IMG/VR virus record: IMGVR_UViG_2711768134_000006
Reading direction: 5' to 3' (one strand)
Length of the DNA stretch: 64,000 bases
Origin: an uncultured virus (IMG/VR IMGVR_UViG_2711768134_000006)
Lineage: Duplodnaviria > Heunggongvirae > Uroviricota > Caudoviricetes
Positions 14,859 through 63,900 of the stretch are shown piece after piece. The translations under genes and the position numbers were made by a program. Position 1 is the first letter of the stretch; the number at the start of each line of letters is the position of its first letter. The notes beneath the pieces are model-generated. The model was not told where the DNA came from and made no database searches. It saw only the letters and a list, made by a program, of their open reading frames with translations.

Positions 14859-14876
14859 TTAAAATCATAATTTTAA
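14859..14876. repeat. Junction site TTAAAA-TCATAA-TTTTAA
   Basis: Perfect copy of the dispersed motif, between the tail and lysis modules. Confidence 0.55.
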
Positions 14877-14893
14877 TTAGAAATTTAGTGAAT

Positions 14894-14920
14894 AAGAGCC
14901 TTGTTTTATAGGCTCTTTTT
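14894..14920 (+). terminator. Intrinsic terminator
   Basis: AAGAGCCT/AGGCTCTT stem plus T-tract. Confidence 0.7.
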
Positions 14921-14949
14921 ATATTAATTATTTAAAAGGAGTGGTAATT

Positions 14950-15765
14950 TTGAATATAAAAACATTAACAATTCATGCAGGACACAACCCAGATGGTAAA
15001 GTAGGTTCTGGAGCAGTAGGAAATATAAAAGAATCTACAGAAGCAAGAAATGTACTAAAAGAGTTAATACCTTTATCTCAAAAGGAATGTAAAGTTTATG
15101 ATTGTACATGTAACAATGGAACTTCTCAGAGTGATATATTGAATAAGATTATAGATAAATGTAATTCATATAACACAGATTTAAATGTAAGTATCCATTT
15201 CAACAGTGGTGGTGGTCGAGGAGTAGAAGTTTTAGTGTATAATTTAAATGACAAAGAAACTGTTGAAATAGCATCAAGAATATGTAAAAAAATAACTGAA
15301 ACTTATCATGCAAAAGGTGATAAAGATTTTAAAAATCGTGGAGTTAAAGAAAAGAAAACTCTAGCATTTTTAAGAAGAACGAAGGCAAAGTCAATTTTAG
15401 TCGAGTGCTGCTTTGTAGACACATCTGATACTAAAAAATATAATGCTAAAGATATGGCCATAGACATTTACGAAGGAATATTTAATAAGTCTGTAGCTGG
15501 TAAACCACAAGATAACAAAGTGAAATACGCAATAGTTTATGAAGGTGAAGTAGATAAAGTTATAGCCCAATTAATGGCCATGAATTATAAATCTAATGAA
15601 GTCTCTATATGTGAGTTGAAAAATTATGTTCCTGGACATTGTGAAAACCTATATGTGATTGGTAGAGCATCCAGTAAAATTAAAACTAGCGAGAGATTCA
15701 CTAAGTTACAAGGTGATGATAGATGGGCTACACTTCATAAAGTGTTAGATTTTATAGGCAAGTAG
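14950..15765 (+). CDS. Endolysin, N-acetylmuramoyl-L-alanine amidase (Amidase_3) with CD27L-like C-terminal domain
   Basis: HAGH, E, SIHFN and LVECCFVD zinc-amidase motifs; YAIVYEGEVD and G.DRW.T C-terminal domain; TTG at 14950 fits the AGGAG RBS. Confidence 0.9.
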   Translation: MNIKTLTIHAGHNPDGKVGSGAVGNIKESTEARNVLKELIPLSQKECKVYDCTCNNGTSQSDILNKIIDKCNSYNTDLNVSIHFNSGGGRGVEVLVYNLNDKETVEIASRICKKITETYHAKGDKDFKNRGVKEKKTLAFLRRTKAKSILVECCFVDTSDTKKYNAKDMAIDIYEGIFNKSVAGKPQDNKVKYAIVYEGEVDKVIAQLMAMNYKSNEVSICELKNYVPGHCENLYVIGRASSKIKTSERFTKLQGDDRWATLHKVLDFIGK

Positions 15766-15776
15766 GAGGTAATGAA

Positions 15777-16394
15777 TTGAATATATTAGATAAATCAACA
15801 GCTACATTAGAACAAGTCTTTTCGTATTTAGACACATTAAAAAATAACTCTAATCCACCACATTTTTTATGCAGAGCTATAGTACCAATTATATATAAAG
15901 AAGCAGAGAAAAAAGGTGTAAATCCAGTTATTGCAATTGCTCAAGCATTTGTAGAAACTGGATATTTTAATTTTGGTAGAGTTTTAAATCCTTCTTATTG
16001 CAATGTGTGTGGTCTTAAAGGAAATAAAGGTGGAGGAGATTTAGACCCAACAGCTCATACAAGATTTAATTGTTGGGAGGATGGAGTATCAGCATTTATT
16101 GACCATCTAGCATTATATGCTGGAGCTAAGGGATATCCAAAATATAGTGAATTAGTTGGTAAAGTTGAATATAAAGTAAATGGAACTACATTAGACCCTA
16201 GACATTTTCCATATTTACATGGAGAAGCTAAAACAGTAGAAAGTTTATCAGGCAAATGGTGTCCAGATATGAATTATGGCCAAAACATAATAAATATATG
16301 TAATAAGATAAGTTCAATGAAGGTAGAAAACAATGATGTAAAATTAGAGCAAATAAAAACTAAAGTAAAAGAATTAAATGAGATTCTTGGATAG
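15777..16394 (+). CDS. Glucosaminidase (GH73-like), second peptidoglycan hydrolase
   Basis: AIAQAFVETG, N.CGLK, F..WEDGV.A and GKW....NYG motifs. Confidence 0.8.
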   Translation: MNILDKSTATLEQVFSYLDTLKNNSNPPHFLCRAIVPIIYKEAEKKGVNPVIAIAQAFVETGYFNFGRVLNPSYCNVCGLKGNKGGGDLDPTAHTRFNCWEDGVSAFIDHLALYAGAKGYPKYSELVGKVEYKVNGTTLDPRHFPYLHGEAKTVESLSGKWCPDMNYGQNIINICNKISSMKVENNDVKLEQIKTKVKELNEILG

Positions 16395-16405
16395 GAGGAA
16401 ATCAC

Positions 16406-16986: not shown

Positions 16987-17003
16987 ATAAGGAAGTGAAG
17001 TAT

Positions 17004-17939
17004 TTGGCAAAACAACGCAGTAAAAGAATAAGCATAAATGGAGAACTAAATCCAGAGAATATTAAATTATGGAAGCAATACAAAAGAGCAAAACAAATAG
17101 CTGGGAAAAGTGAAAAAACAATATATAATTATGAATGTGATATAATGCAATTTTTTAAGTTTTTAAATATAGAATGTTTTGATGCATTACTAACTGATAT
17201 AAATGAAGAAGAAATAGAAGCTTATATAGGTTATTGTATGGAACATGGAAATAATGAAAAAAGAATTAGACGTAGAATAAGTTCAATTTCATCATTACTA
17301 TCCTTTTTAAAGAAGAAGAGGAAAATTACTGACAACTGGTGTGAAATGATAGAAAGACCAGGAACAGGCGAAGAAGTTCAGAAAAGAACTTTTTTAACTG
17401 AAGAACAGTTAAGCAAATTAAAAGAAAAGCTTTCAGAGCAAGACAATTTACAGTTAGAAGTTTATATAAATTTAGGATTGGCTACAATGGCTAGAAGTAA
17501 TGAGATAAGTCAATTTAGATGGGACAATATAGATTTAGATAATAGATGGATTCATGGTATTACAGCCAAAGGTGGAGTTTCAAGAGATTTTAGATTTTCA
17601 GAAGAAGTCCAGCATCTATTAATAGAATGGAAGGATTATCTATCTCAAAATAATATAGATTATCCGTATATATTCTTTACAAGATATGGAGGCAAATACA
17701 ATCAAGTCAATTCAAATGTCTTAAGTTCATGGGTTAAAAAAGCTTTCAGGTTAATTGGTATAGAAGGTGGATATAATCATGACCTTAGACATAGTATGTC
17801 TAATCTTTTAAAAGACAGAGGAGTTCCAATAACTACAGTTTCAAAATTGCTTGGCCACAGTGGGGTTGATGTAACTATAAATCACTACACAATAGAAAAT
17901 AAAAATAAATTAGCTGAGGAATATGATAAGTTTATGTAA
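17004..17939 (+). CDS. Tyrosine recombinase (XerC/D-like, no arm-binding domain)
   Basis: Full catalytic set: R (ARSNE), K (AKGG), HDLRH, LGH, HY; TTG at 17004 fits the AAGGAAG RBS. Confidence 0.9.
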   Translation: MAKQRSKRISINGELNPENIKLWKQYKRAKQIAGKSEKTIYNYECDIMQFFKFLNIECFDALLTDINEEEIEAYIGYCMEHGNNEKRIRRRISSISSLLSFLKKKRKITDNWCEMIERPGTGEEVQKRTFLTEEQLSKLKEKLSEQDNLQLEVYINLGLATMARSNEISQFRWDNIDLDNRWIHGITAKGGVSRDFRFSEEVQHLLIEWKDYLSQNNIDYPYIFFTRYGGKYNQVNSNVLSSWVKKAFRLIGIEGGYNHDLRHSMSNLLKDRGVPITTVSKLLGHSGVDVTINHYTIENKNKLAEEYDKFM

Positions 17940-18607: not shown

Positions 18608-18700
18608 ACTTTATGTTAATATATACTTATAACATATATTTTATTATTTTAATGTCTATATATGTTGATATTTTAATTGCAGAAAGGAATGTACATATCC

Positions 18701-19021
18701 ATGCAAAAAATACCACAAGCTGAATTAAAAGTTATGAAATTCATATGGAATAAGAATGATATAGTAACATCAAAAGAAGTTATGGAAGCTATGGAATTAG
18801 AATATAACTGGAAGGCGACAACTACACTAACTCTTCTTTCAAGACTCACTATTAAACGTTTTTTAGATTCTGAGAGGATAAAAAGAATTACACATTATAC
18901 AATACTTATTACAAAAGAAGAATATAAAATATTTGAAACAAAGAGATTTTTAGAAGAAGTACATTCTAATTCTATAGAAAGCTTAATTAGTTCTTTAGAG
19001 GATTGTTATAAGAATAAATAA
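18701..19021 (+). CDS. BlaI/MecI/CopY-family winged-helix regulator
   Basis: AELKVMKFIW...W..TT..TLLSRL..K.FL signature; likely ATG at 18701. Confidence 0.85.
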   Translation: MQKIPQAELKVMKFIWNKNDIVTSKEVMEAMELEYNWKATTTLTLLSRLTIKRFLDSERIKRITHYTILITKEEYKIFETKRFLEEVHSNSIESLISSLEDCYKNK

Positions 19022-20489: not shown

Positions 20490-20705
20490 GTATGTTAGAG
20501 TTGATTAAAGAAATTATATTAAAATTAAAATTTCAATTATTCTTTAAATTCCCATTTAAGGAATAGTATATATAAAACATAGAACTTATTAAAAGTACTC
20601 TCTTTCATAGTATGTAATTAAAAATAAGTTATTTTGTACATTATGATTTCTTATATTTAATGGTATAATAAGATTAAATATAAGAATGTTGAAAGGAATG
20701 ATATT

Positions 20706-23237: not shown

Positions 23238-24350
23238 TTAATTAGCTTTGAATAAATTTTCAGATATTCTATCTGAAGCTTCTTTATCCATTTCTTTAAG
23301 TACATGAGAATATACATTAAGAGTAGTATTAATATTTGAATGTCCCACCCTTTCAGATATAACCTTTATAGGTACTTTAGAATTTATAAGTAAAGTAACA
23401 TGTGAATGTCTTAAGTCATGAAATCTAATATGAGGTAAATCATTGTTCTCTAAGAATTTTCTAAATTTCTTACTCATTACATCTTCAGCAATTGGATTCC
23501 CTTTTCTATCAAAAAATAGTAAGTTATATTCATTTCTAACAATACTTCTCAATAACTTCTTATTCTGCTCCAGCCTATAATTTTTTAGTAAATTCATAAG
23601 CTCTATTGGTGCAAATATTTTTCTAACAGAGCTTTCTGTCTTTGGCTCTTTAAGTATAACAGAACCATCTAATCTACTAGTTATCTTATTTACTGTTATT
23701 GTATTTTCATCAAAATCAATATTATCCCAAGTTAATCCCAAAACTTCTGAAAGTCTTAATCCTAGACCTATAGCTAAACTAATAGGAAGCTCCATATTAG
23801 TTCCTTTAGCTAACTCTAATAATTTTAACATTTGTTCTTTATCATAAATTTCATTTTTAAATTTTTTAATTCTTGGACTTTCTATACCATCTATAATATT
23901 TTCTTTTATTAACTTAATTCTATACGCTCTCTTTATTGCAAGTCTCAATACATTTATATGTACTTTAATAGTTTGAGGGTTTAAGTTACCAGCTAAATCA
24001 TCTACATAATTCTGTATATGAATATTTCTCAACTCTTGAAGACGATATTTTCCAATAGAAGGATTAATATGATTTTTACAAATAGCAATGTAACTTTTAT
24101 ATGTAGATGCCGAAATATTATCTTTATATTTTTCAAGAAAGTCTAATATAAATCCAGCTAGAGTGATTTCATTTGGAACAAGAAAACTATCTTTATATAT
24201 ACTGTCCTTAACTTCAGCCAATCTTTTATTAGCATCTCTCTTTTTATCAAAAGCTCCCATATTCTTTTGTTTTCTTTTTCCTGATTCATCATCTCTAAAT
24301 TCTAAGTACACTACATAATTTTTATTTCTTTTTCTTATAAAAGCGTTCAT
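23238..24350 (-). CDS. Tyrosine integrase with N-terminal arm-binding domain (lambda/Tn916 type)
   Basis: N-terminal IRKR...GKRKQK arm domain; GLRLSE, PKT, FHDLRH, VGH and VYSH catalytic motifs. Confidence 0.9.
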   Translation of the reverse strand: MNAFIRKRNKNYVVYLEFRDDESGKRKQKNMGAFDKKRDANKRLAEVKDSIYKDSFLVPNEITLAGFILDFLEKYKDNISASTYKSYIAICKNHINPSIGKYRLQELRNIHIQNYVDDLAGNLNPQTIKVHINVLRLAIKRAYRIKLIKENIIDGIESPRIKKFKNEIYDKEQMLKLLELAKGTNMELPISLAIGLGLRLSEVLGLTWDNIDFDENTITVNKITSRLDGSVILKEPKTESSVRKIFAPIELMNLLKNYRLEQNKKLLRSIVRNEYNLLFFDRKGNPIAEDVMSKKFRKFLENNDLPHIRFHDLRHSHVTLLINSKVPIKVISERVGHSNINTTLNVYSHVLKEMDKEASDRISENLFKAN

Positions 24351-24800: not shown

Positions 24801-25643
24801 ATGAAACTTGATTTTAAACCAACAAAAGTACCTGAAATTGAAATACAGGATGCAGCAGGTATAAATTATCTAAACAGAATAGGTACAAAAAATAGTGATA
24901 CTCATTATAAGATTACTAAAAATAGAGTTACTTTTAGAGTAAAAAAAGAAGATATATTTGTTAAATTTTTAGATAATGGTAAAAAAGAACTGAATGAAAA
25001 ATATTACTTATATATCGAATATTTAAAAGAGACTATTTTAAAAGAAGAAGTTGAATCTTTTGAAATAGGATTTGAAAAAGCTAATATTTGGGCTGATAAG
25101 CACTTAAGTGACTTTGAATATTTAAATTCATTAATTTGGGATATTAAAGAAAAGAGACAATCCAAAATATTAGAAGAAGAAAATGTTGACACCCTAGAGA
25201 AGGCTAAAACTGTTAAATTTCCTTGTTTCTCAAAATACTCAGGTGAATATATATATGATGTAATGCAAACTGATTTAGAGCATTGTGTTGCATATTATGC
25301 AGGAAATTTAAACAGTAAAGAATTTAACTTTTCAAGTGTTGGTGTTAATCAGTTAAATTACAATCCATCATCAGAAAGAACTAAAAGTTATAATTGCATA
25401 AAATATTTATTAGATACATTTTATCCTCATATATCAAAAAATTTATTAGCTTATTTTAAAGATATAAGTCTTGATGATGCAAAAAAAATTATTTTTACAA
25501 GTGGAAAATACAAAGGTAAAACAGCATATGATGTTTATAAAGAAAATAGAAGTTATTTAGAATGGTATTTACAAAATACAAAAAAAACTATATATAATAT
25601 TAGAATGATAACAGCTATTAATCTAATTAAAGAATGTGAATAA
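24801..25643 (+). CDS. Hypothetical protein with C-terminal ExoX-C/DUF3820-like domain
   Basis: F..GKYKGK....V......YLEW motif; TGTGGTATAAT promoter and AGGAGG RBS. Confidence 0.6.
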   Translation: MKLDFKPTKVPEIEIQDAAGINYLNRIGTKNSDTHYKITKNRVTFRVKKEDIFVKFLDNGKKELNEKYYLYIEYLKETILKEEVESFEIGFEKANIWADKHLSDFEYLNSLIWDIKEKRQSKILEEENVDTLEKAKTVKFPCFSKYSGEYIYDVMQTDLEHCVAYYAGNLNSKEFNFSSVGVNQLNYNPSSERTKSYNCIKYLLDTFYPHISKNLLAYFKDISLDDAKKIIFTSGKYKGKTAYDVYKENRSYLEWYLQNTKKTIYNIRMITAINLIKECE

Positions 25644-25645
25644 AA

Positions 25646-26956
25646 ATGGATGTATTAAATTTACCAGATTTTGAAGTTATTGATACAATAATAAATGAAC
25701 ACGATATGACTGTAATTGTTAAACCTAAAAAAGAACCCACCATATGTTATGAATGTGGTTGCACTGAATATTATAAGCATGGAAAGTCTACACGTTCTGT
25801 TAAGGATTTAAATATTTTTGACAAACATGTAGTAATAGAAATACATAGTTATAGATATAAATGTAAACATTGTAATTCTACATTCAATCAAAAATATAAA
25901 AGCATTGATGAAAGAGGTAAAATTACTATTAGATTAAGAAAACAGATAGAAAAAGAATCTCTTAAGAAACCATTTTCCAGTATTGCAGATGAATATAGTG
26001 TTTCACCAACCACAGTAAAAAGAATGTTTGAAGTTTATATGAAGGAACTTGAAAAAAATATAGTTTACACTACCCCAATAGTGTTGAGTATAAATGGACT
26101 ATATCTTAAGAACTCAGTAAGAGCTATATATATAGATGTAGTCCATCATAAAATTCTTGATATTCAAGCAACTAGAAATAAAACTGATATCAAAGCATTT
26201 TTAAATAAATTTCCTAATAAAAAACAAATCGAAGTCATAATAATTGATATGTGCAAACATTGTAAAGAAGCAATTTATGAGGAATTACCAAAGGTAAAAA
26301 TTATTATAGATAGATTTCATGTTTTACAATTAATTACAAATGCCCTAGAAAAAGAAAGAAAGTCTTTTAAAGATACTTTAACAATTAAGCAACGCAAAAA
26401 ACTATTAAAAGATAAAATTTTACTATCAAAAAATAGAGAGGAATTAAAAGATGAACAAATACAGAATATGCAAACGATATTCAATGAATTTCCACATTTA
26501 AAATTAGTATATGAGCTTAAGGAACAATTTAGAGATATTTATGGATGTCAAAATAAAGAAGATGCTTTTAAAATATATGAGAAATGGAAATTGTCAGTTC
26601 CTAAAAATATGAAATATTACCAAGAGGTGATAAAAACAGTTGATAGTTGGTACTTAGAGATATTTAACTATTTTGGATATAGAACAGCAAATACTTCTAC
26701 TGAAAGCGTAAATAATTTAATTAAATATATTGAAAAAGCTGGAAAAGGTTATAGATTTGAAATTTTTAGAGCTAAGATATTATTTGAAACAATAGCAACT
26801 AATAAACCTAAATATAACAAATTAACCTCAACTAAAATTGTAAATACCATCAAGTCTTTTAGTTGGGATGATTCATATAATAAAGAAAAATTAATAGAGG
26901 GATTCGGAGTTAATATTCCACAATTACTTGAAGTTTTCAAAAGTGATAGATTTTAA
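25646..26956 (+). CDS. ISL3-family transposase-derived protein with the first catalytic Asp lost
   Basis: CxxC...RYKCxxC zinc finger, HTH, IDM, IDRFH and TES.NN.IK motifs; the usual GIDE motif reads SING; no terminal IRs seen. Confidence 0.8.
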   Translation: MDVLNLPDFEVIDTIINEHDMTVIVKPKKEPTICYECGCTEYYKHGKSTRSVKDLNIFDKHVVIEIHSYRYKCKHCNSTFNQKYKSIDERGKITIRLRKQIEKESLKKPFSSIADEYSVSPTTVKRMFEVYMKELEKNIVYTTPIVLSINGLYLKNSVRAIYIDVVHHKILDIQATRNKTDIKAFLNKFPNKKQIEVIIIDMCKHCKEAIYEELPKVKIIIDRFHVLQLITNALEKERKSFKDTLTIKQRKKLLKDKILLSKNREELKDEQIQNMQTIFNEFPHLKLVYELKEQFRDIYGCQNKEDAFKIYEKWKLSVPKNMKYYQEVIKTVDSWYLEIFNYFGYRTANTSTESVNNLIKYIEKAGKGYRFEIFRAKILFETIATNKPKYNKLTSTKIVNTIKSFSWDDSYNKEKLIEGFGVNIPQLLEVFKSDRF

Positions 26957-27757: not shown

Positions 27758-28252
27758 TTATTTATTAGTATTTATTTTATTTAAATATGCTATTCCAAGA
27801 GCTATAGCATCATATATATCACTACTCTTCGCTTTACAAGTCCTGTCAATATATTCTCCAATATCAATAATATTTTCTCTTACATAAACAGCCACTTCTT
27901 CTTTTTTAGCCTTACCACTATTCATAAGATATTTTCTAATAGATACTGGATACATATATTCAATCTCTATATTATTTAATTTTACAGTCCTCATTATTGC
28001 CCCTAAGAGTTTTCTTAAACTAAGAATTGTTTTAGAATTTCTTGAAGTGAATTGGTCTTCAACTAAGACTATTTGAATATTATGAGTTGTAATTATCTCT
28101 TGAATTGTATTACAGATATAGCACATTCTCTCATCTTCAGACTTGAATTTATCTTTTTTAGTTACTATTTTTCCATATTTTAATACCTTTTTATTTCTAT
28201 TTATAACTGCCCATCCAGTTGAGGACATGGATATATCTAGGGCTAATACCAT
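27758..28252 (-). CDS. ruvC: RuvC-like Holliday junction resolvase
   Basis: LALDIS..STGWAV, VED, AKKEEV and DIYDAIALG motifs. Confidence 0.85.
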   Translation of the reverse strand: MVLALDISMSSTGWAVINRNKKVLKYGKIVTKKDKFKSEDERMCYICNTIQEIITTHNIQIVLVEDQFTSRNSKTILSLRKLLGAIMRTVKLNNIEIEYMYPVSIRKYLMNSGKAKKEEVAVYVRENIIDIGEYIDRTCKAKSSDIYDAIALGIAYLNKINTNK

Positions 28253-28829: not shown

Positions 28830-29192
28830 TTAACCAAATTTTGGATTATATCCTGCGGGGTCGAAAATCCTTTCATTTTCTTTTTTTTCATTTGTTTCAA
28901 ACATATAAGGATTATCTATAATTACTTGATGAAGCCCTTTAGCTAATACATCCACTAAATATTCCTCATCTTCACTCTCTATGCATCTATCTCTAAATAT
29001 ACAATGAAATAGCTCATGTAAAAATGTAGCTTCTTTTACTCTTTGTGATTGTAAATTATTAGATAATTTTATTGTTTCAGTTCCATAATCAGCTAATCCA
29101 TAACATAATTGATTATTTACTAGAATAGGTTCTTCTGTCTCTTCTATTTTATAGAATAAACCTCCTACTTTTACTTGCTTTGGTATATTCAT
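28830..29192 (-). CDS. Small HExxH zinc-metallopeptidase-like (ImmA/IrrE-like) protein
   Basis: FLHELFH plus downstream EE. Confidence 0.6.
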   Translation of the reverse strand: MNIPKQVKVGGLFYKIEETEEPILVNNQLCYGLADYGTETIKLSNNLQSQRVKEATFLHELFHCIFRDRCIESEDEEYLVDVLAKGLHQVIIDNPYMFETNEKKENERIFDPAGYNPKFG

Positions 29193-29212
29193 TTAAACAC
29201 TCTCCAATCTTA

Positions 29213-29230
29213 TTAAAATTCAAATTTTAT
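29213..29230. repeat. Junction site TTAAAA-TTCAAA-TTTTAT
   Basis: Contains the stop codon (29227-29229) of the methyltransferase gene. Confidence 0.65.
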
Positions 29231-30036
29231 TGTGATTTTGATTTTCTAAAACTCTTGTTTTCCTTGTGTTTACAACCTTCCATTATTAAACTTTCTGTAT
29301 TTCTCATCCTTTTTACCCCCTTATTAAAACTTTCTTCGTTTAATTCTATTCCAATAAACCTTCTATTTGTTTCTAATGCTGCTACTCCTGTTGAAATTAC
29401 ACCAGCAGTAAAATCTAAAATTACATCTCCCTCATTTGAATATGTCATTATTAAATCTTTTAAAAGTGGTACAGGTTTTTCGGTTGGATGTATTGGTGGG
29501 TGAGGTCTAGAATATTTTAGGATTTGTTTAGGATATTTTAAGTTCCCTTCTCTCTCAACTCTTGCAAAATTGCCATAATTGTTATTGTTTTTACATTTAC
29601 TTTCTCCATTAACCTTACCTATACTGTGACTAGGCTTTCCAACTATCATTTGTGGGTTATATACTGGTGGTTTTTCATAAAATATTGCTATCTCTTCAAC
29701 ATTTTTTAAAGGCATTCTTTTAGCATTTAAAAAACCACTTGGTCTGTCTTTTTCCCAATATTTCATTATTTTGAAGTGCTTATCATTACTGCATATTAAT
29801 TTAGATGTAAATGGTTGATTGGTAAATAGTATAATTGGAGTATTTTTATTCCTTCTTAATTTATATAATCTATCCCACATAGCATTAAATGCTAAAGGTT
29901 TATCCCAATTATTTTTAGTTATCCCCTGTGGTATATCAGCAATTATTGCATCTACTTTTACATTTTTTTCAATTAATGTATCCATTATTTTTAAACATTC
30001 ATCATTGTATAACTCATATCTGGTTGTTTTAAGCAA
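29227..30036 (-). CDS. Beta-class N4/N6 DNA methyltransferase-like protein with divergent motifs
   Basis: HPTEKP, ILDFTAG and FIGIEL present; catalytic motif reads DIPQ rather than DPPY/DLPY. Confidence 0.8.
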   Translation of the reverse strand: MLKTTRYELYNDECLKIMDTLIEKNVKVDAIIADIPQGITKNNWDKPLAFNAMWDRLYKLRRNKNTPIILFTNQPFTSKLICSNDKHFKIMKYWEKDRPSGFLNAKRMPLKNVEEIAIFYEKPPVYNPQMIVGKPSHSIGKVNGESKCKNNNNYGNFARVEREGNLKYPKQILKYSRPHPPIHPTEKPVPLLKDLIMTYSNEGDVILDFTAGVISTGVAALETNRRFIGIELNEESFNKGVKRMRNTESLIMEGCKHKENKSFRKSKSQ

Positions 30037-30762: not shown

Positions 30763-31419
30763 CTAAATATAAAACTCTTTCATATCATCTAATCTTAAAC
30801 AAGCTAATTTACCATTATCAAAACATGCTCCACAGTCTATATCTATAATTCCTTTTTGTTTATATATTTCAGCCTTTTCATAATCTTTAATGTTTTGAGT
30901 TGGTGTATGACCAATAATAATTGTGTATCCTTTTATATGTTTATTAGTATTTAATATTGTTCTATCCCACACACAAATATCTTCTTCTTGTAACTCAATT
31001 ATTTGCTCTATACTGAGATTCTCATAGTTATTTGGAAGGTATAGTCCAGCATGGACTAGTATAAAATTATCTATTATCTCTAAATATGGAAGGTTCTTAA
31101 TATATTTATAAAAATTTTCTTTATATTCATAAGACTTCATTCCTAAATCATAAAATGTATCTTTACCTCCATTATAAAACCAAAGAAAACTACTATTTAC
31201 ATCTGTATAACTTTCTTGAAACATTAACTCATGATTACCTTTTAGAAGAGTTATATTCTTATACTTTCTTATATAATCTATAATCTCTAAAGACTTATCC
31301 CCTCTATCTAATACATCTCCTAAAATATACAAATGGTCATTTGAATTGAAATTGATTTGCTCTAACATTGAAATAAATTTATCATACATACCATGTAAGT
31401 CACTCATTACATATTTAAT
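30763..31419 (-). CDS. Metallophosphoesterase (lambda NinI/PPP-type Ser/Thr phosphatase)
   Basis: SDLHG, GDVLDRG, GNHE, VHAG, GHT and IDCG motifs; start probably ATT at 31419. Confidence 0.9.
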   Translation of the reverse strand: MKYVMSDLHGMYDKFISMLEQINFNSNDHLYILGDVLDRGDKSLEIIDYIRKYKNITLLKGNHELMFQESYTDVNSSFLWFYNGGKDTFYDLGMKSYEYKENFYKYIKNLPYLEIIDNFILVHAGLYLPNNYENLSIEQIIELQEEDICVWDRTILNTNKHIKGYTIIIGHTPTQNIKDYEKAEIYKQKGIIDIDCGACFDNGKLACLRLDDMKEFYI

Positions 31420-31434
31420 AATTACCACCTCCTA

Positions 31435-31452
31435 TTAAAACTAACTTTTTAA
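31435..31452. repeat. Junction site TTAAAA-CTAACT-TTTTAA
   Basis: Lies between the stop of the 31457 ORF and the GGAGG of the phosphatase gene. Confidence 0.65.
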
Positions 31453-33174: not shown

Positions 33175-33180
33175 TTCATA

Positions 33181-33198
33181 TTAAAACACATATTTTAT
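33181..33198. repeat. Junction site TTAAAA-CACATA-TTTTAT
   Basis: Contains the stop codon (33195-33197) of the upstream gene. Confidence 0.65.
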
Positions 33199-33440
33199 TT
33201 TATAAATTCTTCCCATAAATAAGAATTATTAGAATCAATATTATATTCTGGGTCTATTTTATCTGCTTTAATATTTTCAACTAACCATTTAATACCTTCT
33301 TCTTCCGAAAAAAATACTATTTTCTCCCCATCTTCATCATATTTAAATCTTTCTGAAGAATACTCATAATAATCATCTGGATATATTGTAAGTAATTTTA
33401 CTTTATTTTCATAGCTTATAAAAGGGTAATATGTAGGCAT
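33195..33440 (-). CDS. Hypothetical protein
   Basis: AGGAGAG RBS. Confidence 0.6.
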   Translation of the reverse strand: MPTYYPFISYENKVKLLTIYPDDYYEYSSERFKYDEDGEKIVFFSEEEGIKWLVENIKADKIDPEYNIDSNNSYLWEEFIK

Positions 33441-46932: not shown

Positions 46933-46972
46933 AAAACCCTCCTTTTAATTTTATTCAGTTTATAAATATTAA

Positions 46973-48807: not shown

Positions 48808-49380
48808 CTAACCTTCCACAATAATATAACCTTCTTTATAATGTCTTCCCATATTGTTCACCCTTTTATAATACTTATAATCACTCTCCCCTTTTATTCT
48901 TGGCACAAATACATCTATTGCATTAGAATTTCCAAAATATTTATTAGAACCTCTGTCTTTGACTACCTTTAAATTTCCATCAACTAATATTTTAGTTCCG
49001 AATTTAAGATGATTATTGGCCACAAACCCATATTGTAATTTTTCTCCTGTAGCTGTAATAGCTCCATATTTACTATTTTCACAGTTTAAAGAAGTATAGT
49101 AACTTACTTCCCATGTTACAGGAATTAATTTTTCTATTTTTATTCCTAAGTCCTTTTCTAAATTAATTCTCTTGATTTCTAATTTATATTCAGAACTATT
49201 TTTGTGTTGCTCCCACTCATATTTATACATTAAGTTAATATTTTTAGCTGTATCTGCTACAATATTTTTATCCATCCTGCTAGTACTCATTTCTTTAGTA
49301 TTAGCAAATATATGTATGCTACTACCCATTACTAAAACACTTGTTACTAATATATTTCTCCACCTCATAAAGACCTCCAA
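48808..49380 (-). CDS. Secreted 3D-domain (MltA-like) protein
   Basis: Signal peptide; ITATG, FGTKI, V.DRG and IDVF motifs. Confidence 0.8.
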   Translation of the reverse strand: MEVFMRWRNILVTSVLVMGSSIHIFANTKEMSTSRMDKNIVADTAKNINLMYKYEWEQHKNSSEYKLEIKRINLEKDLGIKIEKLIPVTWEVSYYTSLNCENSKYGAITATGEKLQYGFVANNHLKFGTKILVDGNLKVVKDRGSNKYFGNSNAIDVFVPRIKGESDYKYYKRVNNMGRHYKEGYIIVEG

Positions 49381-49385
49381 TCATA

Positions 49386-49403
49386 TTAAAATGATAATTT
49401 TAA
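49386..49403. repeat. Junction site TTAAAA-TGATAA-TTTTAA
   Basis: Intergenic; flank CCTCCAAT(T)CATA shared with the 33181 site. Confidence 0.65.
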
Positions 49404-49411: not shown

Positions 49412-49567
49412 TTATTCTTCAAGAGCATCATCTAACTCTTCGTCTGTTGGCTTTCTCCCTTCTCCATTCCATTCAAAAGCATCTTCTAAATATGCATTTG
49501 GATTATAACAACAATAATCGCAATCTCTATTTTTATTCTCACATCTTTCTTTAAATTTACAACTCAT
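49412..49567 (-). CDS. Small Cys-rich protein (51 aa, MSCKFKERCENK...)
   Basis: Hand-translated; AGGAGG RBS. Confidence 0.6.
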   Translation of the reverse strand: MSCKFKERCENKNRDCDYCCYNPNAYLEDAFEWNGEGRKPTDEELDDALEE

Positions 49568-51853: not shown

Positions 51854-51869
51854 GACCATGTTTTTTAAT

Positions 51870-51887
51870 TTAAAACTGACATTTTAT
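51870..51887. repeat. Junction site TTAAAA-CTGACA-TTTTAT
   Basis: Contains the stop codon 51884-51886. Confidence 0.65.
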
Positions 51888-52093
51888 AGTTTATATTTTC
51901 CATCATCCCTTGGATATAGAAATTTTATATCTTTAAGGTCTAAACCATTTCTCTCGTAATAATTCTTTGCTCTTATACATTCTCCTGGCGACACTCCATA
52001 TAATTTAATTAAATCTCTAAAATTTATAAAATGTTTTTGGCCATCATTTTTTGATGTAATCTCCCATTCAAATACAACGTATTTAACTTTCAC
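51884..52093 (-). CDS. Hypothetical phage protein
   Basis: S.NDGQ.H.I...L..LYGV...EC...L.PR..G.Y pattern. Confidence 0.65.
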   Translation of the reverse strand: MKVKYVVFEWEITSKNDGQKHFINFRDLIKLYGVSPGECIRAKNYYERNGLDLKDIKFLYPRDDGKYKL

Positions 52094-52799: not shown

Positions 52800-53126
52800 T
52801 TAATCTTGTTTTCCAAAATATTCTTCTAGTGCCTTTATAAATAAATGCTCTTTATTTTTAGCATTTTTTATTATGTTTTTAATATCTTCTACAGTACAAA
52901 CATATTCGTCGCCCCACGAATCCCATCCATTTTGATATGTATGGATTAAAATATATCCATATTCTTTTAACTTCTCATCTATCTCTACTAAATTATATTG
53001 AGCATCATATAGTCTATATTGGTCGAATTGATTTACATCTTTACTGTGATTCATTGATATAGCACATATAATGTTATAATTTTTTATCTCAAATTTTTCG
53101 TTTTCTAATACATTTACTTTTCTCAT
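52800..53126 (-). CDS. Hypothetical protein
   Basis: AAGGAG RBS directly after the junction site. Confidence 0.6.
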   Translation of the reverse strand: MRKVNVLENEKFEIKNYNIICAISMNHSKDVNQFDQYRLYDAQYNLVEIDEKLKEYGYILIHTYQNGWDSWGDEYVCTVEDIKNIIKNAKNKEHLFIKALEEYFGKQD

Positions 53127-53138
53127 ATATGTATCTCC

Positions 53139-53156
53139 TTAAAATAATACTTTTAA
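53139..53156. repeat. Junction site TTAAAA-TAATAC-TTTTAA
   Basis: Contains the stop 53153-53155 and abuts the RBS of the next gene. Confidence 0.65.
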
Positions 53157-54332: not shown

Positions 54333-54683
54333 TTAAATATTATTTAGATTTTCTATTTGAATTGTTCCAGTAGCACAATCTATATGTTGCCCAAGAATAG
54401 ATGTTAAGCAACAATCTATATCATCTACTACTATTTTTATATGAGGGTCTATTTTTAAAGATATTCCATTTATGGCTTTTGTATCATATATTTTACTTCC
54501 ATTAAACATGTATTCTTTAAAGGTTCTTGGGTTTATTATATCTAAATTCATTGTTTTTGCTAAACTAATTATGTAATTTTTATTAGCAATAGAATGACAT
54601 AATATAAGTGCATTATTTTCATAAGCATACTTTATTAATGCAGTAGTTTTCCCACTACTTCTGTTTCCATTTATTAATTTCAT
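54333..54683 (-). CDS. Small P-loop NTPase-like protein
   Basis: GNRSSGKTT and IVVDD motifs. Confidence 0.65.
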   Translation of the reverse strand: MKLINGNRSSGKTTALIKYAYENNALILCHSIANKNYIISLAKTMNLDIINPRTFKEYMFNGSKIYDTKAINGISLKIDPHIKIVVDDIDCCLTSILGQHIDCATGTIQIENLNNI

Positions 54684-54699
54684 AATTATTTTTCTCCTA

Positions 54700-54717
54700 T
54701 TAAAATATTTATTTTAA
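54700..54717. repeat. Junction site TTAAAA-TATTTA-TTTTAA
   Basis: Overlaps the stop of the 54709 ORF and abuts the next RBS. Confidence 0.6.
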
Positions 54718-59367: not shown

Positions 59368-59485
59368 CTAATAATTATATCACCCTTTTACTTATATTCA
59401 TTTTAGCATATTCCAAAACTTTTATTATAAAACTAGCACTAAATTTTCTATTGATATTAAATCCTGTATTTTAACTTGTTATTTG

Positions 59486-60374: not shown

Positions 60375-60400
60375 AACTCATTCCTCCATTAATTAAACTC

Positions 60401-60556
60401 TTAAAAATTATTGATGACGTCACACTTAGAGCATTTCCATCGTTTCTTTAATTTATAATTATCAAAATAAGAATTAAAATATCCTACAAATTCTTGAAAT
60501 TCTATCCTTTCACATTGATAACACCATACTTTTACTACATCACCTTTAGAATACAT
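60401..60556 (-). CDS. Small zinc-ribbon protein (51 aa, CYQC...CSKC)
   Basis: Hand-translated; AAGGAG RBS. Confidence 0.6.
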   Translation of the reverse strand: MYSKGDVVKVWCYQCERIEFQEFVGYFNSYFDNYKLKKRWKCSKCDVINNF

Positions 60557-60571
60557 TTATTGTCTTTCTCC

Positions 60572-60952
60572 TTAATATAATCTCAATCTTTTAATTGTAG
60601 ATGGTATTTCATCCTCATTAAATATTCCTAAGTTAACACATGTTATGCTATTTTTAGGAATTTCTGTTAATCCTCTATCCACTATAGTTAAATAACCTTT
60701 TTCTTTAAATTTTAATAATTGTGCCTCTTTAGCTTTCAATATACATATTGTATCCCCATTATTCTTAAATGACGTTAAATCACATTTTAAATCTATTAAT
60801 TCATGTGCTATTGTTTCTGTTTCATAAGAGCAAGAAACAGTGTCTAAAATTTTGTCATACAAATAATCATAAACTGCATGTGCAACTTGTGCTCCAACTT
60901 TGCCTGGACTCATATTTAAGTCTGAATTAATTGCTATGTACATTTTTTTCAT
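60572..60952 (-). CDS. pth2: Peptidyl-tRNA hydrolase type 2
   Basis: L.MS.GK..AQ.AHA, I.D.G.TEI, T....G and L.LY motifs. Confidence 0.85.
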   Translation of the reverse strand: MKKMYIAINSDLNMSPGKVGAQVAHAVYDYLYDKILDTVSCSYETETIAHELIDLKCDLTSFKNNGDTICILKAKEAQLLKFKEKGYLTIVDRGLTEIPKNSITCVNLGIFNEDEIPSTIKRLRLY

Positions 60953-60973
60953 TATTATAAACCTCCAAATAAA

Positions 60974-60991
60974 TTAAAATTATTATCTTAA
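60974..60991. repeat. Junction site TTAAAA-TTATTA-TCTTAA
   Basis: Contains the stop 60988-60990; precedes the pth2 RBS. Confidence 0.55.
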
Positions 60992-63900
60992 TACCAATAC
61001 ATAATAATTAAACTATGTTTTTCAAAATCAATTATGTTTAACATTTTTTGAAATTCTTTTAATACTAAATCCCAAAACTCCTGTGTATACCTATCATCAA
61101 CTGTTACTTTTTTATCATTTTTATAATAATACTCTTTATCCTTATTGTATATCTTAGAATTTATATCTTTTTGTTTAAGAAAAGGAATTATATAATCTTC
61201 CAAATCTTCCTTTGTAATAAGTATGGCTTCATCTTCATAACTTTCATAACCTTTTTCCCATTTGGCTTTATATATCATACGAATAACTGACCAATCTTCT
61301 AAAGATATATCAATATCTAATAATTCTTCAAACTTATAAAACTCTTCTTCATCATTATTCAATTCCTTATATTTCTCACCTCTTGTTTTATTTAAATAAG
61401 TATCTAAATCTGTAACTTTTGTTTTTACTGAATAAAAACCTAAATCTAATCCCATATGTATCACCTCGCTAATTAAAACTGTTTTAATTAGATTCTAAAT
61501 TCACTTTTTCTTTTATGATGTTTAATAAAGGTTTATAATTATCAATACCTATTGCTCTCATTACTCCATTATCTACATGTTTAATATATTTCATTAAATA
61601 CCTCACTTATTATTTTTAATTCATCACAATCATGCTCATTTTCTAATTTATTTTTTATAAATTCTGCTACCTCCTCTTCTTTTAACTTTTCTATATCTTC
61701 TTGATGATTTAAGATAACCTTCATAATAGATGACAAAGACATCCCATAATCATACATCGACTCATCTCTTATAATATCCTTCTTTTTATTCTTATATATT
61801 ATCATTAAGTCTGTTGTATAGCAGCTGCCATAGTCACACGTTTCACATCCACTCGAATATTCTTGCTCTGTTGTTATGTCTATTATTGCTCCATTCGTTA
61901 ACTGTATTAATACCTTATCATCCATATTTATTAATTCTCCTTTTTAATTTTATTTATTTAAAACTGTTATTTTATTTAAATTTCATTTGACTGTAAATAC
62001 TCAAGATTTATAATATCTAATGATTTTAATATTCAACTTTATACTCACCAGATATTTCAATACCTTCATTTTTTAAAATAATATTTCCATCTACAAAAAC
62101 TGTTATTGTAACATTTTCTAATTCTACTTCCCCACTGCTTAATTTACCTTCAATAGAAACACAATACGTTCCCTCTTTAAGTATCTTAAAAACTTTTTTA
62201 AGTATTTCTCTTTTATCCTCATTTTCTAGAATTAAGTTAAATTTAACATTATGTTTCTTAGATGGATAAATTATAAGATTAATTCTATCTTCTATTTTAT
62301 ATTCAGTCATTCAAACCTCCTTTTGATATAACACTATAGCTATTTTATTCATTTATAATATTTAATTTGGATAGATTTATTTTATATTTATCTAAATAAG
62401 AATTTCCTTTGACCACATCAACTGCTTCATACCATAAATAATCTATATCTTCTTCAGATATTTTTAATTGTTCAATAGACTCTTCTTTCATTCTATCCAT
62501 CCAGTTCTTAGCTTCTTTTTCTGTACAAACCCTATGCATATACACATGTATAAATTCGCCTTTACAAATTAATTCTTCTGCGATGTAATATAACCTTACT
62601 TCTTTATCATCTAAATCTTGTTTATTTTCTGATTCTTCCAAAGCTGATATTAGTCTTTCTGCTGCTTTCTCATCTTTTATATCTATATTTTTTAATATAG
62701 TTTTTGTAGACATGGTTTCTCTCCTTATTATATTTATTTTTTAATCCAACCTTCTGGATAATCATTTCTTAAAACTCTTAACCCTAATACTTGTTGAGCT
62801 TGATGTATAGCATTTTGAAAATCTCTTAACTCAGAAGGATGCTGTCTTTTTAATTTGCAAAATCCATTCCATGCATTTATCAAATTGTCCATAACCACTC
62901 CTTCTTCATAATTTAATCCATCAAGTCTTTTTCCTTCTCTATTACCATTCATTGTTATTGTAATCCCATTTAAATCTAAACTATTTTTATTTAAACTTTT
63001 TATGTAATGTATTATGGGTTTTACTACATCTTCAATATCTGCATTTACCTTTCTAAGTAAACTATAATCACCACAATCATATTCAACATAAGCTAATTGG
63101 TTTGTATCACTATCAAAACCTAATGATAATTCTGTTTTACTAGCTATAGGTATTAAATCTCTTTTGCAATTAGGACATACTATTACATCTTCATTTAAGA
63201 AATAATAGTATTCTTGTAATGTTTCTTCTACATTGAAGTATTTATTACAATTCTCACACCAAAACCTCACAGTATCACTCCTTTTATATTTATAACATAG
63301 ACTCTATTTTATTTATCTCTAATTCAACCTTCTTTTCATTAGATAATAATTCCATTAATTTTATTTCCATCTCTTCAAGTTTACTTCTTTCCTCATTTAT
63401 AGTTAATATATCTAATTTACTTTTTATATCATCTATCCAATCTTGTACATCATAACCACTCATTACAAGATTGAAGCCTAAATTTTTAGATGACATATTA
63501 TAAGAATGTAACATAGATGCTAATAATATTAATTCATCTTTTTTTAGTACTTGTATATTAATTTTCTTATTATTCCAATTCAATATACAATTAGTTTTTG
63601 GTGTAAATTTTTTTATTGAATCTAACTTTTCTTTTTTTAATTTTATTTGTTCTTTTAAAGTTATTATTTTATTATCACTATTCATTAATTATTTCCCCTC
63701 TCTATATAATCTTCCATTTAATAAATATGTGTTTAAATATTGTGGTCTTATTTTGTTATATAATTCTTCTAAATTGTTATATTTTTCTTCTCTATAACCA
63801 TAAGTATAGAGTGTGCTACGTCCTTTTAAATATTTAATTCTACCATCAGAATATATTCTTACTTTTTCTCTATTTGCATAAAATTCAATTCCCCAACATG

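Follow-up and report, generated by a model that had tools for sequence, protein, structure and literature searches.

Gene junctions in the window, a stretch of 64,000 nucleotides that forms part of the sequence of Clostridioides phage LIBA6276, carry copies of a short palindrome, TTAAAA-N6-TTTTA. The copies, together with the recombination genes that bear on their interpretation, are:

1059..1079, + strand: atypical exact copy whose spacer contains the start codon of 1066..2781, a tail gene
14856..14879, no strand assigned: complete palindrome in the late/lysis arm, whose genes are on the + strand, 35 nt after 14642..14824
14894..14917, + strand: hairpin resembling a terminator, 18 nt past the 14859 copy
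16995..17939, + strand: tyrosine recombinase, XerC/D type
20516..20536, no strand assigned: one-mismatch copy between + strand genes, indistinguishable from background
23238..24350, − strand: tyrosine integrase with arm-binding domain, 93–99% identical in all six genomes
27758..28252, − strand: RuvC-like resolvase
29210..29230, − strand: junction element, PWM 18.3
31432..31452, − strand: junction element preceding 30763..31428, a metallophosphatase gene
33178..33198, − strand: junction element, left arm overlapping the stop of 33195..33440
37624..37644, − strand: junction element with perfect 8-bp arms, overlapping the stop of 37641..37943
46357..46932, − strand: ERF-family single-strand annealing protein, candidate enzyme for short-homology exchange
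46932..46948, − strand: atypical exact copy, erf ribosome-binding site (RBS) in the spacer, erf start codon overlapping the right arm
49383..49403, − strand: junction element upstream of 48808..49380
51867..51887, − strand: junction element overlapping the stop of 51884..52093
53136..53156, − strand: junction element directly adjoining the RBS of 52800..53126
54697..54717, − strand: junction element with a stop codon in the spacer, upstream of 54333..54683
59454..59474, − strand: recombinant copy with one right-arm mismatch, from comparison with relatives
60971..60991, − strand: copy with one mismatch (TAAGA as left arm) that overlaps the stop of 60988..61464
61955..61975, − strand: junction element upstream of 61581..61925

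The ten exact copies listed in the earlier note (14859, 29213, 31435, 33181, 37627, 49386, 51870, 53139, 54700 and 61958) were all confirmed at those coordinates on the + strand, and none of them extends more than 9 bases into coding sequence, in agreement with its assignment of them to gene junctions. Both strands together give 18 matches, since six of the ten sites are full 18-bp palindromes and are counted twice; dinucleotide shuffles of the window give 2.01 (sd 1.64, maximum 7) and reached 18 in 0 of 100 cases. When considering intergenic DNA of the whole phage, TAAAA-Nk-TTTTA occurs 16 times at k=6 compared to 0–3 times at any other k from 0 to 14, and an order-3 Markov model predicts 2.0±1.3 copies (maximum 7 in 200 simulations). 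Coding DNA shows no enrichment under the same model (2 observed, 5.65 expected). The motif is thus enriched intergenically only, and a chance origin of the intergenic copies is excluded. Outside the window the same gene arm holds five further intergenic copies, and within the window two atypical copies, at 46932–46948 (−) and 1060–1076, had been overlooked. The previously listed near-matches are as described, with one mismatch each at 20519, 59457 and 60974, two at 53850, three at 56310 and a 3-nt spacer at 61473, yet one-mismatch variants as a class are not above background (66 unique intergenic sites at N6, 64 at N5 and 111 at N7); orthologues in relatives that match exactly lend support to 59457 and 60974 alone. 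The spacer rule also holds, with a pyrimidine first in 15 of 15 and A last in 13 of 15, as does the fixed register of the upstream stop at 29227, 33195, 37641, 51884 and 60988 (open reading frame list) and at 53153 (annotated CDS). The reported co-orientation is seen, but it simply follows transcription, since all genes between 27 and 64 kb lie on the − strand.

The motif is an autonomous unit of ~24 nt, with the sense strand A(T/A)TAAAAT-N4-R-TTTTAA-TAnGA. In a logo built from 52 non-redundant sites both 5-nt arms are fixed and spacer positions 7–10 carry no information, while the flanks favour A-2 (41/52), T6 (39/52), A17 (47/52), G21 (36/52) and A22 (42/52). The element is asymmetric, with the TAnGA extension present on the RBS side only, and the combination T6–G11 is seen 11 times and its mirror, C6–A11, 0 times. 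In the usual setting the upstream stop codon adjoins the element and the next RBS comes after it; for instance, at 29210..29230 the left-arm TAA is the stop codon of the methylase gene 29227..30036, and the RBS and start of 28830..29192 come next. The upstream stop lies within −8..+2 in 45 of 71 copies, an RBS and start codon are at most 40 nt away in 54 of 71, and stop codons occur in at least two frames in 68 of 71 copies with their immediate flanks. Transcribed junctions of co-directional genes hold 71 of the 81 intergenic copies, the other 10 being at about background level. The element is independent of a downstream RBS: the 14859 copy is followed by a tool-called terminator instead, and in pCD1602_4 and ES-S-0173-01 the copies that precede xerC have, by eye, a hairpin and T-run behind them.

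The element belongs to the early/accessory gene arm of large C. difficile phiCD211-like phage-plasmids. Five such relatives hold 23, 21, 12, 17 and 17 copies at k=6 compared to 0–11 at other spacers, and the motif is the top intergenic palindrome found de novo in five of six genomes. The unrelated C. difficile phage phiC2 has 0 copies, which points to a factor of the phage lineage rather than of the host. Exact arms and the fixed 6-nt spacing are kept across genomes with 10–25% flanking divergence while the inner spacer drifts, which argues for sequence-specific selection. ES-S-0173-01 shares the backbone and has only ~5 true junction copies; motif-less junctions there precede dnaE and the homologue of 48808..49380, and the element is thus dispensable at individual genes. 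The atypical copy at 1059..1079 is kept in pCD1602_4 and is found with changes in ES-S-0173-01.

The element persists through gene swaps on either side. Where the upstream gene is the same and the downstream gene differs, spacers are identical in 9 of 13 pairs, and in the converse situation in 16 of 21; more than one partner is found for 5 of 13 upstream and 8 of 12 downstream gene families. For instance, behind one upstream gene and the element at 53136..53156, four relatives carry three downstream gene families, and the 16-mer of 54697..54717 recurs identically with three upstream and three downstream families. The element at 31432..31452 forms the right-hand end of a 98.6%-identical module common to phiCD211, AR1086-1 and LIBA2945. 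At 33178..33198 the downstream gene is replaced in pZ1322PCD0028-2, with homology stopping right after ...TTTTAATATGA, and a DndB-like gene lies ~150 nt downstream of 37624..37644. Directly after 49383..49403 phiCD211 has one extra small gene, and directly after 51867..51887 a block of 3.4–3.6 kb (a small gene and dnaE) is found in phiCD211, AR1086-1, ES-S-0107-01 and pCD1602_4, the element itself being a tandem double copy in phiCD211 and AR1086-1 (a 24-nt insertion behind 51880). At 59454..59474 the left half and spacer are those of the exact copy preceding rtcB in relatives and the right arm has been replaced here by a three-gene 1.5 kb block (57920–59456). The counterpart of 60988..61464 in ES-S-0107-01 ends in an exact copy with another spacer and another neighbour (rtcB).

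As the earlier note had supposed, the sites coincide with gene gain, loss and replacement more than other junctions do. Comparing the window to five relatives, an HSP ends at 9 of 11 motif junctions and 20 of 47 others (p=0.04), and across six genomes adjacency is broken at 39 of 57 motif junctions compared to 149 of 305 others (OR 2.3, p=0.009). Motif junctions are thus a modest hot spot, with about twice the breakpoints of other junctions, about half of the motif-less ones being broken as well. Breakpoints fall inside the motif at 59457, 49386 and 60974. Crossover points are, however, spread over element positions −2 to +22 with no single fixed point. On one side homology stops at about −2, on the opposite side directly behind the GA at +22. 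Many events are one-ended, only one of their two breakpoints lying at the element. Among 22 non-redundant early-arm indels, 13 have no motif at any boundary, and an empty site with a copy at both ends is found for one (two allowing one mismatch). The only indel in ~27.6 kb of 99.9%-identical sequence is a 161-nt deletion ending in the left arm of 49383..49403 in LIBA2945 and pZ1322PCD0028-2, which joined that arm to a motif-less junction via AT microhomology, leaving the motif damaged and its left arm mutated.

These data bear directly on the proposal that the sites are tyrosine-recombinase cores (of 16995 or 23238) delimiting cassettes that, like those of an integron, move by conservative site-specific recombination. 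The geometry, two arms in inverted orientation with 6 bp between them, fits such a core, as do the enriched breakpoints (some within the motif), the identical 16-mers between unrelated gene pairs, the flanking of 60988..61464 by copies with a different order in ES-S-0107-01, and the three tyrosine recombinases that the phage encodes. However, we consider this very improbable given the scattered crossovers, the broken motif-less junctions, the rarity of the cassette signature among mostly motif-free indels, the lack of a motif copy at the far end of the phiCD211 dnaE block, and the motif-less partner used in the recent 161-nt deletion. Essential replication genes lie between co-oriented sites, which would make frequent excision lethal. 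Across the genomes compared, the distribution of the recombinases does not follow that of the motif: integrase 23238 is 93% identical in ES-S-0173-01 despite the ~5 copies there, the counterpart of 16995 is just 43–44% identical in phiCD211, pCD1602_4 and ES-S-0173-01, though the arms stay identical in the first two, and the third recombinase is absent from pCD1602_4. None of the three is an integron integrase: with the model for that family, which has a cut-off of 265 bits, they score 44–67. It is unlikely, if somewhat less so, that the element has no regulatory role and is a structural or fragile AT palindrome, or a pure linker, persisting because it promotes template switching or recombination or provides an upstream newcomer with stops in several frames. 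DNA with A and T tracts in phase, spaced by one turn of the helix as here, is intrinsically bent, and the stops in at least two frames and the one-ended events fit. Against this stand the arms and spacing kept while the spacer drifts, the one-mismatch copies at background level and the small hot-spot effect, and evolvability alone is weak selection.

Operators or RNA hairpins, which the earlier note had itself named as alternatives, have become the leading interpretations. A phage-specific early or middle promoter, used by host RNA polymerase with a phage factor and needing no −35 box, seems as unlikely as a linker. The left arm TAAAAT, one base off the canonical −10 hexamer, would be the −10-like element with transcription starting in the right arm, and a 58-kb one-directional arm needs internal promoters; the 61958 site alone also has a −35-like hexamer at 17 nt. 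Repeated intergenic motifs are described as promoters for the PeSLs of T4-type phages (PMC2839356) and for halovirus HF2 (PMC8707807). However, −35 positions carry no information, a TG extension is lacking, with mostly A at −2, the region has 144 sigma-70-type matches, no more than the 153.8 of shuffles, and a scan of 130 phage ORFs revealed neither a sigma factor nor an RNA polymerase. Taking the right arm as −10 would put starts past the RBS at several sites, the 14859 copy leads straight into a terminator, and the conserved palindromic right arm is left without a role. More credible, though still doubtful, is an RNA-level intercistronic element, in which a phage protein would recognise an A-U hairpin with a 3′ AAUAnGA tail on the polycistronic early mRNA, this structure serving as translational operator or as processing or stability signal and controlling the cistron with the following RBS. 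The one-sided A17, G21 and A22, the closing-pair U-G seen without its antisense-compatible C-A, the confinement to transcribed co-directional junctions, the nearby stops and starts, and the RBS (46932) or start codon (1060) in the loop of the atypical copies all favour it, though stop and RBS closeness is expected anyway from very short intergenic gaps. The predicted hairpin is very weak (mean MFE −1.0 kcal/mol vs −0.22±0.59 for shuffles), the closing pair 6–11 forms in 30 of 52 sites compared to ~33 expected from column composition, Rfam has no match for the element, and copies at 14859 and upstream of xerC precede terminators or hairpins rather than an RBS. Moreover, invariant stems with free loops are the opposite of typical protein–hairpin recognition.

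We tentatively favour, at somewhat less than even confidence, a regulatory junction cassette that is recognised by a protein, its likeliest form being an operator or roadblock on duplex DNA, and that secondarily provides microhomology for module shuffling. The fixed half-sites and free centre of the logo, with arm centres 11 bp apart, are the pattern expected from dimeric DNA binders; in RNA hairpins, by contrast, the stems usually covary and the loops are conserved. We infer protein binding, DNA rather than RNA as the target, and regulation of transcription. Selection would keep the element since a lineage-specific protein recognises it, most probably a dimeric phage-encoded protein acting on duplex DNA at a multi-site operator or transcriptional roadblock. 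A phyletic profile for the motif gave 17 candidate genes, five with a Pfam match (a BlaI-like repressor, two DNA methyltransferases, RtcB and ribonucleotide reductase), none being an evident binder of the palindrome. Promoter regions of the phage's own HTH regulators hold other palindromes and not the motif, so a classical immunity repressor is unlikely as the binder. Some observations sit less easily with a duplex dimer: the TAnGA and T6–G11 asymmetry fits a strand-specific (RNA or single-strand) reading better, the two atypical copies enclose an RBS or start codon as translational operators do, most copies are near an RBS and start, and ES-S-0173-01 has few copies.

With the duplex-DNA operator or roadblock, gene shuffling would be a by-product needing no dedicated site-specific recombinase. 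The element and RBS, 17–35 nt repeated at many junctions, would serve as shared homology, which would account for unrelated genes being joined about twice as often there, and phage ERF/RuvC recombination or microhomology-mediated illegitimate recombination may join such genes at the copies. A similar example is found in the PeSL cassettes of T4-type phages, where shuffling is likewise a by-product of a repeated junction cassette.

The window is identical to part of the Clostridioides phage LIBA6276 (MF547662.1; 134,243 bp, circular), with no mismatches over the 13,483 and 46,001 bases compared; the available text of one report (PMC5786514) places this phage among the phiCD5774/phiCD211-type "big plasmidial" siphoviruses. 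Record positions are window positions plus 36,517, and whole-phage counts use the public record. From about 27 kb onwards every gene in the window lies on the - strand, and this early arm, which extends to record position ~121.7 kb, carries replication, nucleotide-metabolism and RNA-repair genes together with numerous small genes of unknown function. Phage-plasmids of the phiCD211-like group are common in C. difficile, and their accessory early genes are numerous and turn over quickly.

The earlier note had claimed ten exact copies of TTAAAA-N6-TTTTA for the window; every one is there at its coordinate, six of them as full 18-bp palindromes. Counting both strands, there are 18 matches compared to 2.01 expected, and at least 18 were reached in none of 100 shuffles. 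In the whole phage the intergenic core TAAAA-Nk-TTTTA, where k is the spacer length, occurs 16 times at k=6 and 0–3 times at each other k from 0 to 14. Against a Markov background the motif is enriched in intergenic DNA (16 copies vs 2.0±1.3 expected from an order-3 model trained on intergenic sequence, with a maximum of 7 in 200 simulations) and not in coding DNA (2 copies vs 5.65 expected). Beyond the window the same arm holds five extra intergenic copies, while the late arm outside the window has only two, each within a gene. The near-matches that had also been reported are present, but variants with one mismatch are as a class no more frequent than background, a wobble test on them giving background equal to signal, and only those at 59457 and 60974 are supported, by exact orthologous copies in relatives. 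A pattern scan of viral contigs gave mostly single chance matches among the matches listed, and an Rfam scan of the window gave no match.

We compared five relatives, three of them whole (ES-S-0107-01, pCD1602_4 and ES-S-0173-01) and two as 50-kb stretches (AR1086-1 and phiCD211). At k=6 these have 23, 21, 12, 17 and 17 copies of the core, respectively, compared to 0–11 at other spacers. When all 5-mer palindromes are counted de novo, this motif comes first in the intergenic DNA of five of the six genomes, and no other palindrome family is prominent among the six. Five genomes have 12–17 intergenic copies each and ES-S-0173-01 fewer than six, its true junction copies numbering only about five. 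In the 50 kb examined of phiC2, an unrelated C. difficile phage, there is no k=6 copy; the motif is a trait of the phage family, not of the host. In phiCD211 (L014 31141-31180) and AR1086-1 (L013 32674-32713) a tandem pair of elements 24 nt apart is found where the window has a single one (51880).

The six genomes contain 109 exact cores, 81 intergenic and 28 in coding sequence, and 71 of the 81 lie between co-directional genes. We built a sense-strand logo from 52 non-redundant sites, and its conserved positions give a unit of ~24 nt, whose core is palindromic and whose 3′ extension is asymmetric.

Positions of the unit in the sense-strand logo (52 non-redundant sites)
Position -2: A in 41 of 52
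Positions 1-5: TAAAA, fixed
Position 6: T in 39 of 52
Positions 7-10: any base, no information
Position 11: A in 23, G in 17, C in 10, T in 2
Positions 12-16: TTTTA, fixed
Position 17: A in 47 of 52
Position 18: T in 31 of 52
Position 21: G in 36 of 52
Position 22: A in 42 of 52

The placement described in the earlier note, with the upstream stop codon in the site and the RBS close behind, is borne out: the stop lies within -8..+2 of the unit in 45 of 71 copies, often as the left-arm TAA itself, and an RBS and start codon follow within 40 nt in 54 of 71. Two copies are atypical, the one at 46932 enclosing an RBS and the one at 1060 a start codon. The copy at 14859 is followed by a tool-called terminator in place of an RBS. 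In pCD1602_4 and ES-S-0173-01 the orthologous copies lie upstream of xerC, and by eye a hairpin and T-run come after them. About a fifth of early-arm junctions are marked by the element.

The element is not tied to one neighbouring gene. Where the same upstream gene is followed by different downstream genes the spacers are identical in 9 of 13 pairs, and where the same downstream gene is preceded by different upstream genes they are identical in 16 of 21; more than one partner is seen for 5 of 13 upstream and 8 of 12 downstream families. Unrelated gene pairs share identical 16-mers, sometimes with a further ~12 nt of the RBS region. At orthologous junctions the arms are constant while the inner spacer drifts, and the element persists when either neighbour is replaced. 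This behaviour fits an autonomous, selected unit that doubles as shared sequence for exchange.

Between the window and its relatives, 71 of 108 ends of matched alignment segments (HSPs) fall in gene junctions, and such an end is found at 9 of 11 motif junctions compared to 20 of 47 others (p=0.04). We also tested gene adjacency across the six genomes. Motif junctions are broken in 79 of 133 genome-pair comparisons (59%) vs 292 of 819 (36%); any break is seen at 39 of 57 motif junctions vs 149 of 305 motif-less ones (OR 2.27, p=0.009), or vs 90 of 179 when the latter are restricted to those with a gap of at least 18 nt (p=0.02), p-values that are optimistic since orthologous junctions are counted once per genome. 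About half of the motif-less junctions break too.

The earlier note had interpreted these sites as the limits of integron-like cassettes, an interpretation that fares poorly on the insertions themselves. Among 31 non-redundant simple insertions, 22 are in the early arm, and 13 of these have no motif at any boundary while 9 have one at some boundary; the integron-like signature, an empty site with a copy at each end, is found for one of the 22, or two if one mismatch is allowed. The 3.4-kb dnaE block of phiCD211 directly follows the 51870 element and has no copy at its far end. Crossover points are not fixed in the 6-bp spacer, where they had been predicted, and range from -2 to +26. When the upstream gene is swapped, homology ends at -2..0, and when the downstream gene is swapped it ends after +17, +18, +20 or +22, or past the RBS; overall, boundaries lie at -2..0, within the left arm, within the right arm, and at +17, +18, +20, +22 and +26, and three events terminate inside the element.

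We examined two pairs for recent breakpoints, one at >99% identity and one at 97–99%. LIBA2945 and the window are 99.9% identical over 36.2–64 kb, and their sole indel is a 161-nt deletion in LIBA2945 of a small gene (49412..49567), which fused the left arm of the 49386 copy, via imperfect AT microhomology, with an RBS junction that has no motif and left that arm with one mismatch. The boundaries of the large LIBA2945/LIBA6276 mosaic, at 24626 and 36187, are both motif-less junctions. Elsewhere, the window has a 1.5-kb three-gene block in place of the right arm of the rtcB-proximal copy, with a 5-nt match in the arm at one edge and an 11-nt match at the RBS at the other. For the 97–99% pair, 6 of 20 HSP ends lie within 15 nt of a motif vs ~3 expected, by a hand count rather than a script. 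The element is a modest hot spot for breaks, and the data do not support a site-specific cassette system.

Nor does the motif follow either of the two tyrosine recombinases that had been put forward as movers, the Xer-like 16995 (16995..17939; 17004 in the earlier note) and the integrase 23238 (23238..24350). The integrase is 93–99% identical across all six genomes, including motif-poor ES-S-0173-01 (93%, about 5 copies). The Xer-like protein is merely 43–44% identical in phiCD211, pCD1602_4 and ES-S-0173-01, and the arms are identical across genomes whose Xer-like recombinases differ to this extent or are missing, so that the site does not co-vary with the recombinase. A third, xerC-like recombinase, encoded beyond the window, is found only in LIBA6276 and ES-S-0107-01 among the six. 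None of the three is an integron integrase by NCBIfam TIGR02249 (46.7, 67.4 and 43.7 bits vs a cut-off of 265). The elements are scattered over ~58 kb of the early arm, 5–95 kb from the recombinase genes. They have the geometry of a tyrosine-recombinase core, with inverted 5–8 bp arms around a variable 4–6 nt centre; the well-studied core sites have longer arms. An ERF annealing protein and a RuvC-like resolvase are also encoded within the window.

The function of the element we infer from these properties. Our tentative preference is for an operator or roadblock acting in duplex DNA, with recombination as a by-product. This reading has the edge over one at the level of RNA because the arms are invariant and the centre free, the RNA hairpin is weak (a pure A-T stem of 6–8 A-U pairs, mean -1.0 kcal/mol), and the closing pair is no commoner than composition predicts. 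Though these points weigh against it, an RNA-level operator or processing site, which we consider unlikely but worth keeping in view, would account for the strand specificity of the 3′ extension, the 11:0 preference for T-G over C-A and the copies that enclose an RBS or start codon. A phage-specific promoter is improbable: at some copies transcription would begin past the RBS, and one copy leads directly into a terminator. A scan of 130 ORFs of the phage gave no sigma factor or RNA polymerase, and a sigma-70 promoter in particular is unlikely, the logo having no -35 or TG signal and promoter-like matches not being enriched. We give as little credence to a linker without regulatory function, or a fragile palindrome. 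UP-element, CodY-type, IHF-type and restriction-site readings do not fit in geometry or distribution, and phiC2 is without copies.

Two readings give recombination the main part, and we rate both lower still. In the first, which is very improbable, a phage-encoded enzyme would recognise the element and cleave it, and so start one-ended capture and loss of genes; the enzyme would be a strand-specific nickase or a recombinase that acts at secondary sites. This reading is compatible with the data since breakpoints are enriched at or inside the element, one-ended events are frequent and the sense strand is asymmetric, with T-G tolerated and C-A never seen; if true, a human pathogen would harbour, on a phage-plasmid of 130 kb, a phage-borne system of cassette exchange unlike integrons that works at ~12–17 junctions. 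The second, a site-specific cassette system, is the least probable of those listed, and the remaining probability goes to something else.

The contig sets of RNA libraries X1 and X3 contain a phiCD211-like relative with the 24-nt tandem-motif insertion and the 3.4-kb dnaE block, while the phage is absent from raw-read runs X14 and X18, which have the same species label. One 31-kb contig of X3 (depth 212) spans the early arm of this relative (window 44000-63999), which may reflect read-through transcription or contaminating phage DNA; as assembled contigs, these data cannot show transcript ends, and the reads examined yielded no informative DNA joints. Only one terminator-like site is found in 45–64 kb, away from the motif.

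A classical immunity repressor is an unlikely binder of the element, since the regulators' own promoter regions carry other palindromes. Those of the HTH regulators (window 18096-18142; stretches L003 27300-27411 and L002 23342-23377) have repeats of their own, namely a perfect 17-nt inverted repeat, three copies of a ~19–28 nt palindrome and a tandem 18-mer, which are probably the true operators of these regulators, and the motif is not found at the regulators' own promoters. By phyletic profile, 17 genes are in all three complete motif-rich genomes and missing from ES-S-0173-01; the hypothetical genes among them all belong to PHROGs of unknown function, and no candidate emerged from the profile. 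A BlaI-like repressor (18677..19021) matches it, with no link to this palindrome found. An HU-like gene cannot be the common factor, because it is present in LIBA6276 only. Discovery of a binding protein would reveal a regulatory circuit with many sites, new for a Gram-positive phage-plasmid, and would also provide a simple sequence marker for module boundaries.

Among known systems, integron attC sites are likewise oriented imperfect palindromes that bound promoterless RBS+ORF units, with a stop that may overlap the site and some strand asymmetry. However, attC sites are much longer than the 17–24 nt of the element, which lacks an IntI and extrahelical-base architecture, is dispersed over 58 kb instead of forming an array beside an integrase gene with an attI and a common promoter, and can remain with the gene on either side instead of travelling with one cassette; most indels ignore it. 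The integron analogy should be dropped, and is not required to explain the element. The intercistronic RNase III sites in early mRNAs of phages such as T7 and SP82 similarly lie between the early cistrons of a polycistronic mRNA and are conserved and able to form a hairpin, though they are long and stable whereas the hairpin here has only 6–8 A-U pairs at about -1 kcal/mol. Stoperators, which are asymmetric, are sites for a monomeric repressor whose targets include the early promoter as well. Like the element, they form a family in which one short repressor-type site recurs many times in the small gaps between genes, commonly at stop codons and oriented with transcription. Unlike stoperators, which are spread genome-wide, the element is nearly confined to one arm, has a palindromic core and is absent from the regulators' own promoters.

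Repeated junction motifs that act in regulation and in recombination are a known kind, including the stoperators of cluster A mycobacteriophages (PMC9283540), the promoter-early stem-loop (PeSL) cassettes of T4-type phages (Arbiol et al. 2010, PMC2839356; Comeau et al. 2014, PMC4122927) and the intergenic repeats of halovirus HF2 (PMC8707807). The PeSLs are the closest described case. They combine an early sigma-70-type promoter with a stem-loop that terminates transcription, flank ORFan indels, and recombine at various internal points, and mini-circles arising from exchange between adjacent cassettes have been shown for them (PMC2839356; PMC4122927). Like the PeSLs as described there, which lie in hyperplastic regions, the element is a short conserved cassette repeated between small accessory early genes, indels or replacements between close relatives end in it (here with an OR of 2.27), and it is an exchange point for unrelated genes with crossovers at differing internal points, element and RBS being shared here by unrelated gene pairs. 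It differs from that description in having no -35 box, TG extension, G+C-rich hairpin or terminator stem-loop, and in belonging to a temperate phage-plasmid of a Gram-positive anaerobe. The HF2 repeats (29 and 58 bp), in the available text, are also AT-rich and intergenic in a viral genome, though they were shown to be promoters by reporter assays (PMC8707807), whereas no promoter features were found in the element.

The element stands apart in its form, a palindrome made up purely of A/T, with a centre fixed at 6 nt and neither promoter nor terminator, and also in its host and phage lifestyle. In a search of the literature other than the main phiCD211 paper (Garneau et al. 2018), we found no description of the motif, and the phiCD5763/phiCD2955 paper has no occurrence of promoter, motif, palindrom or intergenic. 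The element is solid and moderately interesting: it is the clearest handle so far on regulation and gene exchange in the early arm, and extends the PeSL idea, of regulatory cassettes that double as recombination linkers, beyond T4-type phages.

Several features of gene content were seen along the way. The replication module is swapped between the window (38056-46290) and phiCD211 (L014 27778-30849). The DnaE of the window, which lies beside DHH/RecJ-like, primase-like and DnaB-like genes, has 31.6% identity to that of phiCD211, AR1086-1 and the ES phages, in which dnaE is in another location, directly behind the junction that corresponds to 51870. On the + strand, in the interval from the integrase to the early arm (24801-26956), are an ExoX-like gene (24801..25643) and an ISL3-family transposase (25646..26956), a segment with a 98.7% match in phiCD211 that is missing from LIBA2945, AR1086-1 and the ES phages. 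The window has a solitary DndB-like (DGQHR) gene (36331-37470), and a recent LIBA2945 mosaic boundary is the RBS/start of the gene downstream of it, a class II-type RNR in the window and NrdD/NrdG in LIBA2945. Elsewhere in the early arm there is a 798-aa protein with Cas3 HD and Cas3 C-terminal helicase domains (L003 16126-18519). The 97–99% relative pZ1322PCD0028-2 has an annotated IscB RNA-guided endonuclease and a small transposase gene in its early arm (L142 38374-39874), where LIBA6276 has none. An RNA-repair-like set, comprising an RtcB ligase, a PTH2 peptidyl-tRNA hydrolase, a Tpt1/KptA 2′-phosphotransferase and an ATP-dependent ligase (window 56661-57914 and 60572-60952; L003 10124-10720 and 7412-8692), may counter host tRNA or RNA nucleases. 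The third recombinase gene is preceded, at a distance of ~30 nt, by a near-consensus sigma-70-type promoter with 11 of 12 matches (L003 14550-14578), and the motif copy at record position 109,659 lies upstream of this promoter.
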